From: Candidatus Thalassarchaeaceae archaeon
GTDB lineage: Archaea > Thermoplasmatota > Poseidoniia > Poseidoniales > Thalassarchaeaceae
DNA: 64,000 bases
Direction of reading: 5' to 3'
NCBI GenBank assembly: GCA_023268715.1
Contig: JALRLV010000003.1
Span: 84,636-148,635, forward strand
The stretch's first letter is position 1, and every line of letters starts with the position of its first letter. Positions 26,614-56,070 of the stretch are shown piece after piece. The notes beneath the pieces are model-generated. The model was not told where the DNA came from, did not search any database, and worked only from the letters and a program-made list of their open reading frames with translations. A program made the position numbers and the translations under genes.

Positions 26614-27666
26614 TTATTCATCTACATTGAATCTCTGATATACTTCATTAGTAGTTTGAGTGACTCGTATGAATGTGGTACATTTTGGCAAGTCTTTGAT
26701 TCGCCGAGCGCCTACGTATGAGCATGCAGAGCGAACTCCTCCAAGGATAGCCTGAACTGTAATTTCCAAAGCCCCTCGGTAGGGGACTCGAACCTCTTTA
26801 CCTTCTGGTGCACGGTGCTTTGCAACTTCCCCATAGTGAGTTTCCATAGCCTTGGCGCTGGACATTCCGTAGAATGATTTGTACTGTTTCCCATTATCCC
26901 CAGTGACGAGTTCCCCACCCGATTCATCATGGCCAGCGAACATCCCGCCTAACATTACGAAGTCGGCTCCCGCAGCGAAGGCTTTGGCTACATCACCAGG
27001 ACTTGAACAACCTCCGTCGGCCATAACGTGTCCAGCCAAACCATGTGCGGCGTCTGCACATTCTGCAATTGCAGAAAGTTGAGGATAACCGACACCTGCT
27101 ACCTTCCGAGTTGTACATACTGAACCTGGTCCAATTCCAACTTTGACAATGTCTGCACCGGCTAGAATTAACGCTTCGGTCATTTCTCGGGTTGCAACAT
27201 TACCGGCGATAATTATAGAGGATGAGAATTCATTCCTGACCTTCTTTACGAAATCCAAAAACACCTCTCGATACCCGTTTGCAACATCAATACAAATCAA
27301 TTTCGTGGCGGAGTTTGTACTCATCTTTCGCTTTAGTAAATCGAACGAATTGTCGGTAGAGCCACAGGTAACAGCAACGTATTCTGGGTTAATTCCATCA
27401 TTCCAAGCAGCTGCATAATCCTTGGTTGAGTAGAATTTTTGCATACAAGTCATCATTTGGTATTTTTGTAATTCTGCAGCCACGCTGAATAGTCCTGTAG
27501 TATCCATATTCGCAGAAACGATTGGCACGCCGGTCCACGTAGCATCGGAATGTCGAAAAGTGAATTCACGAACCAAAGTAACATCCGATCGCGAAACCAG
27601 CGTACTGCGCTTAGGTCTAATCAATACATCATCAAAGGTAAGCTTCACGTCGTGTTCTACACGCAT
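26614..27666 (-). CDS. guaC: GMP reductase
   Basis: [43 protein letters not shown] and FYGMSS; no CBS domains. Confidence 0.95.
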
Positions 27667-27746: not shown

Positions 27747-27824
27747 TGGTGCTCGTGCCGGGATTTGAACCCGGGTCGACGGATCGAGAGTCCGTCATGA
27801 TGGACCGAACTACACTACACGAGC
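27747..27824 (-). tRNA. tRNA-Glu(CTC)
   Basis: GCTCGTG/CACGAGC acceptor stem, ACGGA-CTCTCGA-TCCGT anticodon arm, encoded CCA. Confidence 0.95.
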
Positions 27825-27887: not shown

Positions 27888-27932
27888 ATTCACTTTCACT
27901 TTTACTTTGCACTCTTCTGTCTTCATTGATAT
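27888..27932 (+). promoter_or_regulatory. tandem ACTTTN hexamer element plus ATTGATAT box (putative DNA-damage response promoter)
   Basis: ATTCACTTTCACTTTTACTTTGC at 27888-27910, ATTGATAT at 27925, ATG at 27955. Confidence 0.6.
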
Positions 27933-27954: not shown

Positions 27955-28230
27955 ATGAACCGAAGTCTTAACCGCGATACAGAACAAATTTACAGAAAGC
28001 GACCAGAACCCGTACGTGTAGTGCCATTTTCTAGCCTAAACAAGACAACTGGTAAATCTACCAGGCGTAATTCTGAGGTGTTGGTCAACTCATCCAATGG
28101 GAATGCTACAGAAGGTCTATGGCAACCTATGCCAAAACGTGCGATAGAGGTTAATGTTAGCCCTTCTAGTTGGAGTGGATTGCATTCCCGAGTTCTTGCA
28201 TCGAGAAAAGTCACAGTGGAGGTTATCTGA
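27955..28230 (+). CDS. small basic hypothetical protein
   Basis: ORF from ATG 27955; its stop overlaps the next start (TGATG), with a GGAGGT SD for the next gene at its 3' end. Confidence 0.55.
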   Translation: MNRSLNRDTEQIYRKRPEPVRVVPFSSLNKTTGKSTRRNSEVLVNSSNGNATEGLWQPMPKRAIEVNVSPSSWSGLHSRVLASRKVTVEVI

Positions 28231-28484
28231 TGTCTCGTACTCGAAGATTGCGAGAAGCCGTATTGGTGCTACTTGAAGAAAAAGGAACAGCCAATACGGT
28301 GGAGGTATTTGACCATCTAAATGAGAGATTTAGATGGGGTGCTACCATGAATCAAGTGGGGAATATTCTAGCTAAAGATCCTCGCTTTTCTAAAGTGGGC
28401 CATCAGAGAGGTCAATTCAGAGGCAGTGTTTACACAGTCTGCGTTTGGTCGTTGTCAACCGAACCCCTGATTCCAGCAGTTTAA
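28230..28484 (+). CDS. winged-helix putative nucleic-acid-binding protein (DUF3860-like)
   Basis: RLREAV..LL.EKG.ANT.EVFDHLN.R.RWGATMNQVGN.LAKD.RF.KVG...VW pattern. Confidence 0.75.
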   Translation: MSRTRRLREAVLVLLEEKGTANTVEVFDHLNERFRWGATMNQVGNILAKDPRFSKVGHQRGQFRGSVYTVCVWSLSTEPLIPAV

Positions 28485-49530: not shown

Positions 49531-49902
49531 TTATTCAATCACTCGAAGAGTACCATTTCTACCAGTTGAAACTACTCTTTCACCGAGCCTTTGTTTACAC
49601 CAACCATCTGTAATTTGAATAATATCTCCTGTAGCAACCTGTTCGATTTGTTCATCCCAAAGTACCAATCCTACAACTCCAGATTCATCACGTCCACAGG
49701 CAGCGGCGACCCGGCCTGTCCAATTTCTGCTAGAAACAACTCTAGGAGGATATCTACGTAAGACTAGAACTTCTAGATAGGATACAGGACTGCCTGCTTT
49801 CAATCGACTTACTTTCGTCTTACGTCTTCCACGATTTTGATCTTTGCTATTTCCTTTAGAATCAATCAAAATTTTCTTTTCTATATTGCTAAGTTTATTC
49901 AT
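49531..49902 (-). CDS. OB-fold single-stranded DNA-binding protein (SSB/RPA-like)
   Basis: KV..L..G, G.VA.A..DESG.V.LVLW.EQ...V..GD.I.I..GW....G...V.TGR.G pattern of single-OB archaeal SSB; start uncertain (49902 or 49926). Confidence 0.8.
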   Translation of the reverse strand: MNKLSNIEKKILIDSKGNSKDQNRGRRKTKVSRLKAGSPVSYLEVLVLRRYPPRVVSSRNWTGRVAAACGRDESGVVGLVLWDEQIEQVATGDIIQITDGWCKQRLGERVVSTGRNGTLRVIE

Positions 49903-49930
49903 TTGAATCGTTTGAACTAACCACATTACA

Positions 49931-49996
49931 ATATCAATCCCAATTAGGGGAGTAAAGTGAAACTGAAAGTCCCCTACGGAATAACTGAAAGTGAAC
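49931..49996 (-). promoter_or_regulatory. double tandem A(C/G)TTTC element plus ATTGATAT box upstream of the SSB-like gene
   Basis: Minus strand reads GTTCACTTTCAGTTATTCCGTAGGGGACTTTCAGTTTCACTTTAC...ATTGATAT. Confidence 0.65.
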
Positions 49997-50000
49997 GATT

Positions 50001-50750
50001 TCATTCCTCTTCTTTCTTGGTTAACCGTCGAAAACCGCTTACGATTTCTTGTTTATCGTCATCTTCCTCTACATTCACTCCAACTTCTGTCAGGTGTTTT
50101 TGAACCTGTGAATAAGCACTCTTACCCCGTGCTCCCTTGCGCGGTTTAGGCAAACGATTACGACAGACTAGGTAGGTCTCAGACGAGGCATTACGACTAG
50201 CCATAGGGGCAAAACGTTGGACATTAGCGAACCGATCTTTTGCAGCCAAAATTAAACCTTCAATTCCAACTCCTTGGAATATTTTGGTAACAAATGCGCC
50301 CCCTGGTGCTAACATTCCCATTGCTACATCCAGCGTCATAGTGGAGAGTTCTAGAGAAATGGCTTGGTCTGTATCATATCTTCCAGTCAATTTTGGAGAG
50401 ATATCCGACAAGACAACATTCAGTTCTCTCCCTTCTAGTAAGTCTTCAATTCTATCAATTGTCTCTTGTTGTGAAATATCTCCTTGAATGATACTTGCAC
50501 CTTCAACAGGAGATGTAGATTTCAAGTCAACACCAATTACTACTCCTTCTAACCCAGCCTCCTCAACAGAAACCTGCGTCCATCCACCTGGGTGACATCC
50601 TACGTCTAGAACAACATCGGATTCTCTGATCAGTTGAAACTTCTCTTGAATTTGTTTGAGTTTGTAGGCAGAACGAGCCCTGTATCCTTTGGACTTTGCT
50701 TGTCTACGCCACGGATCGCGCCGATTCTCTTGGTACCAGCGCTTACTCAT
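50001..50750 (-). CDS. rlmE: 23S rRNA 2'-O-methyltransferase RlmE/FtsJ
   Basis: GYRARSAYKL, D.G..PGGW, VLSD.SP, FV.K.FQG and SR..SSE.Y motifs. Confidence 0.95.
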   Translation of the reverse strand: MSKRWYQENRRDPWRRQAKSKGYRARSAYKLKQIQEKFQLIRESDVVLDVGCHPGGWTQVSVEEAGLEGVVIGVDLKSTSPVEGASIIQGDISQQETIDRIEDLLEGRELNVVLSDISPKLTGRYDTDQAISLELSTMTLDVAMGMLAPGGAFVTKIFQGVGIEGLILAAKDRFANVQRFAPMASRNASSETYLVCRNRLPKPRKGARGKSAYSQVQKHLTEVGVNVEEDDDKQEIVSGFRRLTKKEEE

Positions 50751-50812
50751 ATTCGCTCGTCAAGCCCATCAGTTATGAATCCGAGGCGCAGATTTAGCAA
50801 ATCGGGTTTATC

Positions 50813-51754
50813 TCACAGGCCGATTTCGTCAATCAGTGCCCTAGCGGTATGTCTGATTGCTGCCTCTGATTGCATAGTAGGTTCAAATCCGGTTGAAAAT
50901 AAATATTCGACATCTAGACTTGTCTTTGGAACATCACCAGCCCAACCTCGGTCGCCACCTGTGTATTCAATTGAAACACCCTCTAAACCGGACTCTTCAA
51001 CAACAATTTCAGCGATTCTTCTGACTGAGCAAGTATCGCCAGTACCTAGGTTGTACAGATTTATTGCATCATCGGTACCGTCTACAATGTGTACCATTGC
51101 TCTAACACAATCTTCTGCAGACATGTAGGACTTTTCTTGTAATCCATTACCTAAAACTTCCAATCTACTTGGGTCATTCTTCAATTTGTGAATAAAGTCG
51201 TAAATCACTCCATGAGTACCTCTTGGGCCGACGATATTTGCAAAGCGGTGAATCCAAGATTTAGCCCCGAATGTTCCACACCATGCGGTGATTAGTGCCT
51301 CGCTTGCCAACTTACTTGCTCCATAGAGTGAGATTGGCTTTACTGGCCCGTATGTTTCAGGCGTTGGCATTACATTCGCCTCTCCATAAATCGCGCTTGA
51401 TGAGGAAAATGAAATTCTCTTCACACCAGAATTTCTCATCGCTTCGAGTACATTGTAAGTTGCAACAGTACCTTGACGCAGGTCGGTATCGGTGACTTCT
51501 GTACCTAAACGAATATCGGGGTTTGCAGCTAAATGATGGACGGTTTCTATACCTTCCATAGCTGAATTTAATGAATCAAAATCAAGGAGATCACCTTTGA
51601 CGATTTCAACCATTCCAGAACCCTGATGGTGGTCTAGGAAATCTTCTCTTCCACTAGAAAAATTGTCAAACACTCGAACTCTTTTGCCTTGTGCGACCAA
51701 TGTATCGACTAGGTGAGAACCGATGAATCCTGCGCCTCCTGTGACTAGTTCCAT
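50813..51754 (-). CDS. NAD-dependent epimerase/dehydratase (GalE-like SDR)
   Basis: TGGAGFIGSH, HLAA, SSS..YG and YGASK motifs. Confidence 0.93.
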   Translation of the reverse strand: MELVTGGAGFIGSHLVDTLVAQGKRVRVFDNFSSGREDFLDHHQGSGMVEIVKGDLLDFDSLNSAMEGIETVHHLAANPDIRLGTEVTDTDLRQGTVATYNVLEAMRNSGVKRISFSSSSAIYGEANVMPTPETYGPVKPISLYGASKLASEALITAWCGTFGAKSWIHRFANIVGPRGTHGVIYDFIHKLKNDPSRLEVLGNGLQEKSYMSAEDCVRAMVHIVDGTDDAINLYNLGTGDTCSVRRIAEIVVEESGLEGVSIEYTGGDRGWAGDVPKTSLDVEYLFSTGFEPTMQSEAAIRHTARALIDEIGL

Positions 51755-51860
51755 GGTTGCGCCACTTACGCATCTACTTTGAGCCATTCGCCGTATTGAC
51801 AAATTAATAATCTAGGATAATTTAATGAAAAATTTTGAAAATCAGCTAATACCAGGCCCT

Positions 51861-51962
51861 CATTCAGTTTCAGTCATTCCGTCATCATATCCACAGCCAC
51901 AGCCTTAGGAAGTGTACCAGAGAAACCAGTTTCACTTTCATTCTCCTCTCATTTATTGTATT
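51861..51962 (+). promoter_or_regulatory. double tandem A(C/G)TTTC element (exact TTTCACTTTCA at 51930-51940) plus ATTGTATT box
   Basis: CATTCAGTTTCAGTCATTCCGT at 51861-51882, CAGTTTCACTTTCA ending at 51940, ATTGTATT at 51955. Confidence 0.65.
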
Positions 51963-52008
51963 CATATCTAGGTCCGCATTTCGGCCTTCAACTTGGAGGT
52001 AAGAAAAT

Positions 52009-52257
52009 ATGCCAAAGACATCAAGCAAAAATGAACAGCCCGAGAACGAACAGAACACCACCCTTGTTGGGTGGGCTAGGCAAAGTCAAGCCGGAGGTGC
52101 GCTAAAGATTAGTTTACATCGAGATGCAATTGATAACTGCCACACATACACGACCTCTGACGGAACCGAATATGTGCCCCTTGTGATTAGTACCGCCGCT
52201 CTACGCCGAGTATTAGAAGGGCAGCAGACTGTAACCACCGTAAGTCAGTTCTCATAG
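52009..52257 (+). CDS. small hypothetical protein (82 aa)
   Basis: GGAGGT SD before the ATG; LVGW.R.S.AGGALK.S...TSDG.EYV.L.I beta-rich core. Confidence 0.8.
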   Translation: MPKTSSKNEQPENEQNTTLVGWARQSQAGGALKISLHRDAIDNCHTYTTSDGTEYVPLVISTAALRRVLEGQQTVTTVSQFS

Positions 52258-55772: not shown

Positions 55773-56070
55773 TGAGGGTGCAGGGAGTAAGCCCCTTTCT
55801 GTTCACCTTTCAGCTGGTCGCATTCAACTATGCATCCTACCCGGCCCTGTCGATGCACTACGGGCCTGCTTGGACTTGCTCCAGCGGGGTTGCTCGTTCC
55901 AGCCGCGGTCAGGAAATCTCACCCTTTCGGGATCATCGTGCGCCTGGCGCGGGACGTTTCTGTTGCAGAGCCGGCCCTCCCGGACCTCCGGCTTGCACCG
56001 GACCGCTTGCATCTTGGAGAGGGGACTTTCCTCAGTGTCTGGCACTGTCAGCGACCCTCCTGCTCCCTCA
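55773..56070 (-). ncRNA. rnpB: RNase P RNA
   Basis: Minus strand has GAGGAAAGTCC, GCAACAGAAAC, GGAAC.AGCAACCCC..GGAGCAAG and AACAGAAAGGGGCTTA; terminal helix TGAGGG.GCAGG/CCTGCACCCTCA. Confidence 0.95.

Follow-up and report, generated by a model that had tools for sequence, protein, structure and literature searches.

The DNA analyzed here is a 64,000-nt stretch (hereafter the window) of contig JALRLV010000003.1 (positions 84,636 to 148,635, forward strand; assembly GCA_023268715.1) from a Candidatus Thalassarchaeaceae archaeon, a member of the Poseidoniales within the Thermoplasmatota (marine group II, MGII). A first-pass annotation, made from the sequence alone, had proposed that three promoters of the window share tandem A(C/G)TTTC hexamers placed ahead of a TATA-like box, and that they belong to a LexA-independent DNA-damage regulon of an MGII archaeon. 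The three sites are located upstream of a two-gene operon (site A; genes A1 and A2), of a gene encoding a predicted single-stranded DNA (ssDNA)-binding-type protein (site B; gene B) and of a gene for a conserved small protein (site C; gene C). All of them were found where they had been reported (Table 1), and the assignment to MGII agrees with the protein names and named loci obtained in this study, which are those of Poseidoniales/Thalassarchaeaceae.

Architecture of the three promoters

At site A, the sequence TTCACTTTCA (27889-27898) overlaps the hexamers ACTTTC ACTTTT ACTTTG (27892-27909, plus strand); the boxes, located 46-66 nt ahead of the start codon, are followed by 15 nt, the octamer ATTGATAT, 22 nt and the ATG at 27955. 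Site B, on the minus strand, has the same order: proximal boxes, 14 nt, ATTGATAT (49938-49931), 28 nt and the ATG at 49902, with all of its boxes 51-95 nt ahead of this codon. The boxes of site C lie 64-146 nt ahead of the ATG, and the proximal ones include an exact copy of the 11-mer TTTCACTTTCA (51930-51940), as the first-pass annotation had stated.

The distance of 14-15 nt between the boxes and the TATA-like box, also part of the initial description, was correct for site A (15 nt) and site B (14 nt). In the case of site C, however, the TATA-like box had been placed 5 nt too far upstream (ATTGTATT, 51955-51962), and ATTCATAT at 51960-51967 is the better candidate. In this alignment a degenerate third hexamer (ATTCTC) is followed by 14 nt and ATTCATAT, a register shared by the genus-level orthologues of C and by radA.

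The mRNA of operon A, in which 22 nt separate the TATA-like box from the ATG, is probably leaderless, and that of gene B probably leaderless or nearly so; C and radA have leaders with Shine-Dalgarno sequences. The true start of gene B is the ATG at 49902, while the 157-aa open reading frame (ORF) beginning at 50004 is over-extended and swallows the promoter.

What sites A, B and C have in common is limited to the boxes and the TATA-like octamer. Their flanks differ, and the sites are therefore not copies of a duplicated segment; an Rfam scan gave no match at any of the three. The commonest enriched upstream 6-mers of the genome are TTATAT, TAAATA and TTAAAT, which differ from ATT[GC]ATAT and indicate that the latter is a non-consensus box. 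We considered whether ATT[GC]ATAT could be a separate second motif, but rejected this: its 146 genomic occurrences are mostly in coding sequence, and it looks like a variant of the TATA box.

Table 1. Boxes, probable core promoter elements and genes of the putative regulon (window positions, unless a contig of the genome, G000, is given)
Feature	Position	Strand	Remarks
tRNA-Glu(CTC)	27747..27824	-	divergent neighbor of operon A
Site A tandem boxes, TTCACTTTCACTTTTACTTTG	27889..27909	+	three hexamers, 6-bp register
ATTGATAT, probable weak TATA box of operon A (putative)	27925..27932	+	TT[GC]ATATGC in orthologues
Gene A1, 91 aa	27955..28230	+	no known family
Gene A2, 84 aa, DUF3860 (PF12976)	28230..28484	+	start overlaps A1 stop
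Gene B, 123 aa, single OB-fold ssDNA-binding-type protein (predicted)	49531..49902	-	basic N-terminal tail
ATTGATAT, probable TATA box of gene B	49931..49938	-	28 nt ahead of ATG
Site B proximal boxes, ACTTTC AGTTTC ACTTTA	49953..49970	-	
Site B distal box, TTCACTTTCAG	49985..49995	-	right behind the stop of the FtsJ/RrmJ gene
FtsJ/RrmJ gene	50001..50750	-	
Site C distal box, TTCAGTTTCAG	51863..51873	+	missing from the first-pass annotation
Site C proximal boxes, AGTTTC ACTTTC (ATTCTC)	51928..51945	+	AGTTTC ACTTTC at 51928-51939
ATTCATAT, probable TATA box of gene C (re-aligned)	51960..51967	+	followed by GGAGGT (51995-52000) and ATG (52009)
Gene C, 82 aa, conserved small protein	52009..52257	+	no recognizable fold
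Gene D, 273 aa	G000 C77:64296-65114		weak likeness to Rad51 paralogues

Strong forms of the box are rare in the genome

The search was extended to the whole genome (1.546 Mb), for which crude gene calls were made for the purpose of this analysis. The composite element, composed of at least two A[CG]TTTN hexamers, a gap of 14-22 nt and ATT[CG]ATAT, is present at three genomic loci, exactly sites A, B and C, versus 0.008 expected. The triple hexamer ASTTTNASTTTNASTTT was detected twice (A and B) against an expectation of 0.016 (whole genome, both strands), and the 11-mer TTTCACTTTCA five times against 1.3-1.6. Within the window, the 12-mer ASTTTCASTTTC has eight matches with at most one mismatch (1.73 +/- 1.27 expected), a number reached by none of 100 shuffles. 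In contrast, the bare hexamer ASTTTC is not enriched genome-wide (1931 seen, approx. 1930 expected) and the double hexamer ASTTTNASTTT hardly so (19 seen, 10-17 expected), where the genome-wide hexamer expectations are analytic. Since the hexamers are not enriched and the strong forms are rare, the signal consists of a handful of strong sites and not of a large regulon.

A scan with the 10-mer TTCACTTTCA, which is present at A, at the distal box of B, at C and at radA, yielded 21 genomic sites outside deep coding sequence (at most one mismatch). Nine of these were assigned to five promoters (itemized as radA, 2; A, 1; B, 2; C, 2; D, 1). The other near-matches are mostly within or against coding regions, and two are on short contigs with no placeable long ORF; they were treated as chance. 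The same applies to the intergenic near-matches ahead of a GlnA-like gene (240 nt off) and a NifU-like gene, for which relatives were not compared.

The box at radA and its conservation

The prediction that the motif would also occur upstream of radA proved correct. This gene, the only one of the Rad51 family in the genome (PF08423 search), is located on a separate contig (C2), and its upstream region carries the TCACTTTCA box twice, ahead of ATTCATAT. The order of elements is tRNA-Met, an inverted TGAAAGTGA, 40 nt, a forward ACACTTTCA, 26 nt, ATTCATAT, GGTGAG and the ATG. The gap of 26 nt equals two hexamer slots plus 14 nt, which is the register of three hexamers and 14 nt seen at A-C.

Orthologous loci were retrieved from 60 relatives of the same family, representing 13 genera, and the strict 9-mer TCA[CG]TTTCA was counted upstream of each gene. 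It is present at 28 of 29 radA loci, at 11 of the 13 A1 loci placed by tblastn and at 13/19 loci of both B and C, whereas the rest of the same loci, used as background, contains 6 matches in 288,738 nt. When the A2-anchored loci were read by eye, the box layout was recognized upstream of operon A in 20 of 20 relatives: tRNA-Glu, approx. 70 nt, TCACTTTCACTTTCA (or two separated boxes), approx. 15 nt, TT[GC]ATATGC, approx. 20 nt and the ATG. The conservation upstream of orthologues that had been anticipated was thus observed for all three sites and for radA.

A scan of named genomes identified 80 radA loci, all from Poseidoniales and including Thalassarchaeaceae and Poseidoniaceae (the nearest being Candidatus Thalassarchaeum, 97%). 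The 9-mer occurs in 70 of the 76 loci with 200 nt of upstream sequence (background, 4 in 125,701 nt), and the six misses are one-letter variants. In the second Poseidoniales family the box was found at radA in 3 of 5 loci. The boxes have therefore been retained at orthologous promoters in 13 genera and two families, while the neighboring bases diverged. Beyond the Poseidoniales, 35 radA loci belonging to further families of the same phylum were compared; in 11 of them, against approx. 3 expected, an A[CG]TTTC hexamer in forward orientation lies in the 160 nt ahead of the radA match (positions counted from the start of the match), and it often stands directly ahead of a C-run and a TTTATA box. 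These sequences are suggestive of a box at radA in other Thermoplasmatota, although a lone hexamer holds little information.

The two most conserved box promoters both adjoin tRNA genes (L001 959-1036; window 27747-27824): radA lies behind tRNA-Met in nearly all loci of the family, and operon A is divergent from tRNA-Glu in 20/20.

Products of the boxed genes

Gene B encodes a small protein whose structure model is an oligonucleotide/oligosaccharide-binding (OB) barrel (predicted local distance difference test score, pLDDT, 86; 17-row alignment). Foldseek matched the model to 45 PDB chains at E <= 0.001, the best folds being Pyrococcus abyssi Rpa1 OB-1, Sulfolobus SSB and human SSB1 (hSSB1), with E values of 2e-7 to 3e-6 and 22-28% identity. 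Comparison with the NCBIfam archaeal SSB model gave an E value of 1e-10, under the equivalog cut-off, and with Pfam OB an E value of 0.022, also under the cut-off. The modeled protein is of the RPA/SSB type of OB fold, and the designation "SSB-like" given in the first-pass annotation holds; ssDNA binding is a prediction.

Gene C belongs to a family of proteins of 82-93 aa with 923 relatives, the named ones all being hypothetical proteins of Poseidoniales. Its structure model (pLDDT 71) had no fold match in the PDB (best E value 1.2). The best matches in BFVD were uncharacterized phage proteins (E values 0.06-0.2), and those in the ESM Atlas only unnamed clusters, one of them mostly viral; the Enc34 ssDNA-binding family scored 0.77, under the lead level.

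Genes B and C are 2-6 kb apart. Both are present in 18 of the 60 relatives, B only in two, C only in two and neither in 38; with this nearly identical, patchy distribution, the two genes behave like a single accessory module. In genus g4 they were found in one genome only (G028), which contains both. A prediction of a B-C complex gave a score of 0.00, which is no verdict and counts neither way.

The promoters of B and C usually contain a distal and a proximal box, 30-60 nt apart. The interval between them (orthologues L003-L021 and L105-L123; window 49971-49984 and 51874-51927) usually holds an inverted repeat, short and GC-rich (e.g., ggggcgtagcccc, ccgcgtagcgg or ctccccaaaggggag), whose symmetry is kept while the sequence varies. 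In more distant genera, the B and C promoters of the same genome have approx. 40 nt in common after the proximal box (ccc..gaaaatgatggtggacc..cgc). The inverted repeat and the common stretch may represent a second protein-binding site or a structure.

Protein A1 had no match in Pfam, NCBIfam, PHROGs or the ESM Atlas. A2 is a DUF3860 protein (53.3 bits, E value 2.8e-14, above the Pfam gathering cut-off of 27) and resembles the hypothetical protein of PDB entry 2od5_A (E value 5e-10). The DUF3860 family was found in 61 of 61 genomes of the archaeal family, with the A2 type in single copy in nearly every one. In a sample of the phylum it was present in both Poseidoniales families (f1, 6/6; f2, 5/5) and in one further family (2/2); it was not found in the remaining 77 genomes of this sample and was over the cut-off in none of 14 control genomes, Haloferax among them. 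Two more DUF3860 genes are arranged in tandem elsewhere in the genome (C22:131630-132162 and about C22:136240-137477, both on the minus strand; E values 2.7e-40 and 1.8e-29), and the latter gene contains a single in-frame TAA. This pair, approx. 4 kb from an Orc1-1-type gene, recurs in many relatives.

The fifth boxed promoter belongs to gene D, in which ATCACTTTCAC is located 74 nt ahead of the ATG (from C77:64222), with a ATTGATAG box in between. The gene occurs in 20 of the 60 relatives, and the strict 9-mer is upstream of it in 8 of 19 loci. Its product matched the Shu-complex Rad51 paralogue Csm2 with an E value of 6e-4, under the cut-off, and RadA with an E value of 0.05; no Walker A motif was seen by eye. 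On these similarities, D may be a degenerate RadB-like mediator. The RPA/SSB-type fold of B and the weak Csm2/RadA likeness of D mean that the gene functions fit a regulon of this kind.

The organism is present, at >=99% identity, in four marine metatranscriptome runs in the form of assembled contigs. These cover a cupin gene, most of B (X3: 49610-49941, extending past the TATA-like box), rrmJ, an epimerase gene and part of C (X4: 52003-52154); the uncovered parts carry no meaning.

In this genome ACTTTTACTTTC also occurs 125 nt upstream of gyrB. A separate feature of that gene is a perfect hairpin (tgagggttcccc ttcg gggaaccctca; C3, about 26845-26890, with the ATG at 26901), which was seen by eye 10-20 nt ahead of the start in 30 of 30 loci of the family (L189-L218). 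Some genera have compensated changes in the stems (aaagggcccc...ggggcccttt, cgaaggttccc...gggaaccttcg, agagggtatc...gataccctct). The hairpin is a candidate for a conserved structure of the 5' untranslated region that would control gyrase. The window also contains the archaeal RNase P RNA (55776-56067, minus strand; Rfam RF00373, 235.7 bits).

Comparison with known regulatory systems

The closest counterpart is a motif of Halobacterium sp. NRC-1. According to the sections of Boubriak et al. (2008; PMC2556686) that deal with it, TTTCACTTTCA precedes the TATA box of four genes induced by low doses of ultraviolet (UV)-B, namely radA1, top6B, vng17 and vng280; a similar motif is found at radA of four other haloarchaea and Methanospirillum, and the authors propose a regulator binding site and tie the motif genes to the recovery of stalled forks. 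The first-pass annotation had described this work accurately, as well as that on the Sulfolobales discussed below. The resemblance to the MGII boxes comprises the identical 11-mer with its internal TTTCA repeat (exact at site C), the position upstream of a TATA box (approx. 50 nt before the start codon in Halobacterium, and putative as a TATA box in MGII), the presence at radA and the small hypothetical proteins among the other members. The MGII boxes thus have three of the four features of the haloarchaeal motif, namely sequence, position and radA; the fourth, induction by UV-B, is known for the Halobacterium genes alone. The MGII boxes differ in that they often form tandem arrays of 2-3 hexamers or distal and proximal pairs, their gene set includes an SSB-like gene, the DUF3860 operon and a Rad51-paralogue-like gene but not top6B, and the host belongs to the Thermoplasmatota instead of the Halobacteriota.

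In the Sulfolobales, the ANTTTC hexamer is needed for the induction of upsA, upsE, tfb3 and cedA1 and is footprinted by Orc1-2, as described in the pertinent parts of Sun et al. (2018; PMC6061795). The A-N-TTTC hexamer at promoters of damage genes, the independence from LexA and, by inference for MGII, the logic of activation are alike. However, the Sulfolobus site is a single hexamer embedded in a consensus of 20 bp, between -23 and -55 relative to the ATG (PMC6061795), whereas in MGII the repeat unit measures 9-11 bp and precedes the TATA box, the gene set is centered on radA instead of upsA, upsE, tfb3 and cedA1, and no Orc1-2-type paralogue was recognizable. Of the features of the Sulfolobus system, the hexamer is the only one recognized for the MGII boxes.

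Bacterial LexA/SOS regulons resemble the present set in their small size and in being defined by a short box, which is found at the genes for the recombinase, for an SSB-type protein and for small uncharacterized proteins. No LexA DNA-binding domain was found over the Pfam cut-off in the genome, in agreement with the postulated LexA independence; moreover, the position of the MGII boxes argues for activation and not repression, and the promoters are of the archaeal TATA/TFB type. The Sta1/sso0777 system of S. solfataricus (PMC2175319; discussed in PMC2556686) is similar in that the promoter of a damage-inducible RadA paralogue has an upstream activator site. According to PMC2556686, the Sta1 site at sso0777 holds one TTTCA unit and Halobacterium has no obvious Sta1 homologue. 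Protein family and lineage differ from the MGII case, and no search for Sta1 was made in the MGII genome.

The relevant portion of a 2017 review states that haloarchaea are thought to lack an SOS response, without mention of a regulator (PMC5626843), and a 2026 paper mentions possible non-initiator Orc proteins in Haloferax, in the part concerned without a tie to the box motif (PMC12890983). A literature search on the motif and on Poseidoniales radA, DNA damage and promoters found no MGII paper. The same 11-mer appears in papers on mammalian IRF-1 sites, and IRF proteins bind such tandem repeats through a winged-helix-type domain; this offers an analogy for the way in which a small winged-helix protein could recognize repeats spaced by 6 bp, and is not a sign of relatedness.

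Proposed mechanism and alternative explanations

The explanation that we favor, although with reservations, is that the boxes mark a small recombination/ssDNA-handling (DNA-damage) regulon of the Poseidoniales, controlled by one factor that acts from an upstream activating site and is shared with haloarchaea. The tandem TTCACTTTCA-type boxes would be the sites of a single sequence-specific transcription factor, and the members would be radA, the A1-A2 operon, the SSB-like gene B, the small gene C and, in some genera, the Rad51-paralogue-like gene D. Because the arrays stop 14-15 nt short of a weak TATA-like box, outside the B recognition element (BRE), TATA box and start, they most likely constitute an upstream activating site. 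A factor bound there would recruit or stabilize TBP/TFB at a poor core promoter upon DNA damage or stalled replication. Activation instead of repression, induction by damage and a single regulator are what we infer from this arrangement, and the signal, by analogy with Halobacterium, would be DNA damage or a stalled replication fork. Since sequence and position are those of the Halobacterium UV-B motif, the system is most likely an old euryarchaeal, LexA-independent damage response.

Several observations weigh against this interpretation. The regulon is very small, and the near-match scan of the genome, in which completeness is 86%, revealed the box at no known repair gene except radA (rpa and tfb were not looked up individually), in disagreement with the wider set of repair promoters that had been predicted. 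The two orc1/cdc6 genes, expected to carry the motif as well, have at most a lone ACTTTC hexamer upstream and no box. The gyrB gene was rejected as a conserved member, because the tandem box is confined to the two closest genomes, while approx. five more of 30 retain degenerate remnants. B and C are absent from about two thirds of the genomes of the family, and the genomes compared are kin, so that the conservation counts overstate independence. The metatranscriptome contigs reveal neither starts, strand nor induction. The Halobacterium motif genes are induced only 1.5- to 10-fold, according to the part of PMC2556686 that reports these values, and the regulator of that motif did not turn up in the literature searched.

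The first-pass annotation had suggested an Orc1/Cdc6 paralogue as a candidate regulator. A non-initiator paralogue of this kind, as in the Sulfolobales, would be compatible with the interpretation that we favor. The hexamer A[CG]TTTC, present at all sites, fits ANTTTC, the footprint site of Orc1-2, which is an activator of damage genes (relevant sections of PMC6061795), and the genome has two Orc1/Cdc6 genes, one clearly of the Orc1-1 type (2v1u, E value 8e-90; 2qby_A, 6e-89) and a divergent one (C3:44204-45379; best match 1fnn, 8e-34) that could be a non-initiator. The divergent paralogue is, however, no closer to a solved ORC2-type protein (1w5s, 5e-16) than to initiators, neither orc gene is boxed while Sulfolobus orc1-2 is itself strongly induced, and the Sulfolobus targets described in PMC6061795 (upsA, upsE, tfb3, cedA1) are another gene set. 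We therefore consider this regulator unlikely, and conclude that the first-pass interpretation was largely right on the kind of system and the lineage, with a presumed induction by damage, but that its Orc1 regulator is unsupported. Protein A2 is an even less promising candidate. In that role it would recognize the repeats and govern its own operon as well as radA, B and C. The tandem boxes of operon A are the strongest and best conserved ones (20/20), self-control is common for such regulators, the A2 type occurs once in nearly every genome of the family, and DUF3860 and the 2od5 structure have what we take to be a winged-helix-like fold. Yet the distribution of DUF3860, confined in the phylum sample to Poseidoniales and one further family and over the cut-off in none of the 14 controls, does not follow that of the box, which is at radA in haloarchaea (PMC2556686, section on the motif) and probably in other Thermoplasmatota. 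A regulatory role of A2 thus appears very improbable, and the regulator is probably a factor other than an Orc1/Cdc6 paralogue or A2, and one that is probably shared with haloarchaea.

With respect to the mode of action, the boxes could be operators of a repressor with LexA-like logic, bound in undamaged cells and released after damage. At the promoters of B, C and radA there is usually a pair of boxes spaced by 30-60 nt, distal plus proximal or, at radA, inverted, which could loop the DNA over the promoter; regulons of the LexA type, too, are small and contain the recombinase gene. Archaeal repressors, however, usually cover the BRE/TATA region or the start, while sites farther upstream are activating as a rule. 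None of the boxes reaches the TATA-like box or the expected start; they end 14-15 nt upstream, and the core box is non-consensus, as expected of activator-dependent promoters. Repression consequently seems to have a small chance of being the correct explanation. It is also conceivable, although quite unlikely, that the regulon is governed by the cell cycle or by replication, with recombinase and SSB supplied in S phase, and not by damage as such. The radA, SSB-like, Rad51-paralogue-like and, in the closest strains, gyrB products are replication-fork as much as repair proteins, which agrees with the link to stalled-fork recovery drawn in PMC2556686; the same report, in its section on the motif, nevertheless has the four Halobacterium motif genes rising after UV-B, and orc1 has no box here (no individual look-up was made for mcm, pol and pcna). 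That the boxes are functionless, either alike by chance or left over from a short mobile repeat, is a practically negligible explanation. Although single and double hexamers show no genome-wide enrichment, the composite occurs at three loci against the 0.008 expected, the sites have only the boxes and the TATA-like box in common and not the flanks, and the conservation counts already contradict chance, since the boxes are kept across 13 genera and two families amid diverging sequence.

Beyond the regulon that we propose for the Poseidoniales, a wider and rather doubtful reading is that one TTTCA-repeat factor controls an SOS-like recombination regulon that predates the split of Thermoplasmatota and Halobacteriota; this factor may be related to the ANTTTC/Orc1-2 system, which would then make it pan-archaeal.

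Significance

The cis-element first seen in Halobacterium is found here in a new phylum and with new members, and its retention at radA across the Poseidoniales means that what had been observed in a single species is a cis-element of deep conservation. Many aligned promoters now define the site, and the depth of conservation makes the missing damage regulator of euryarchaea directly approachable. A1-A2, B, C and D form a short list of presumably co-regulated candidate repair factors, and in ocean ecology they could serve as markers of UV or replication stress in MGII archaea, which are uncultured. If a single factor older than the split does control them, A1, A2, B, C and D would be new ssDNA/recombination accessory factors in very abundant archaea of the sunlit ocean.

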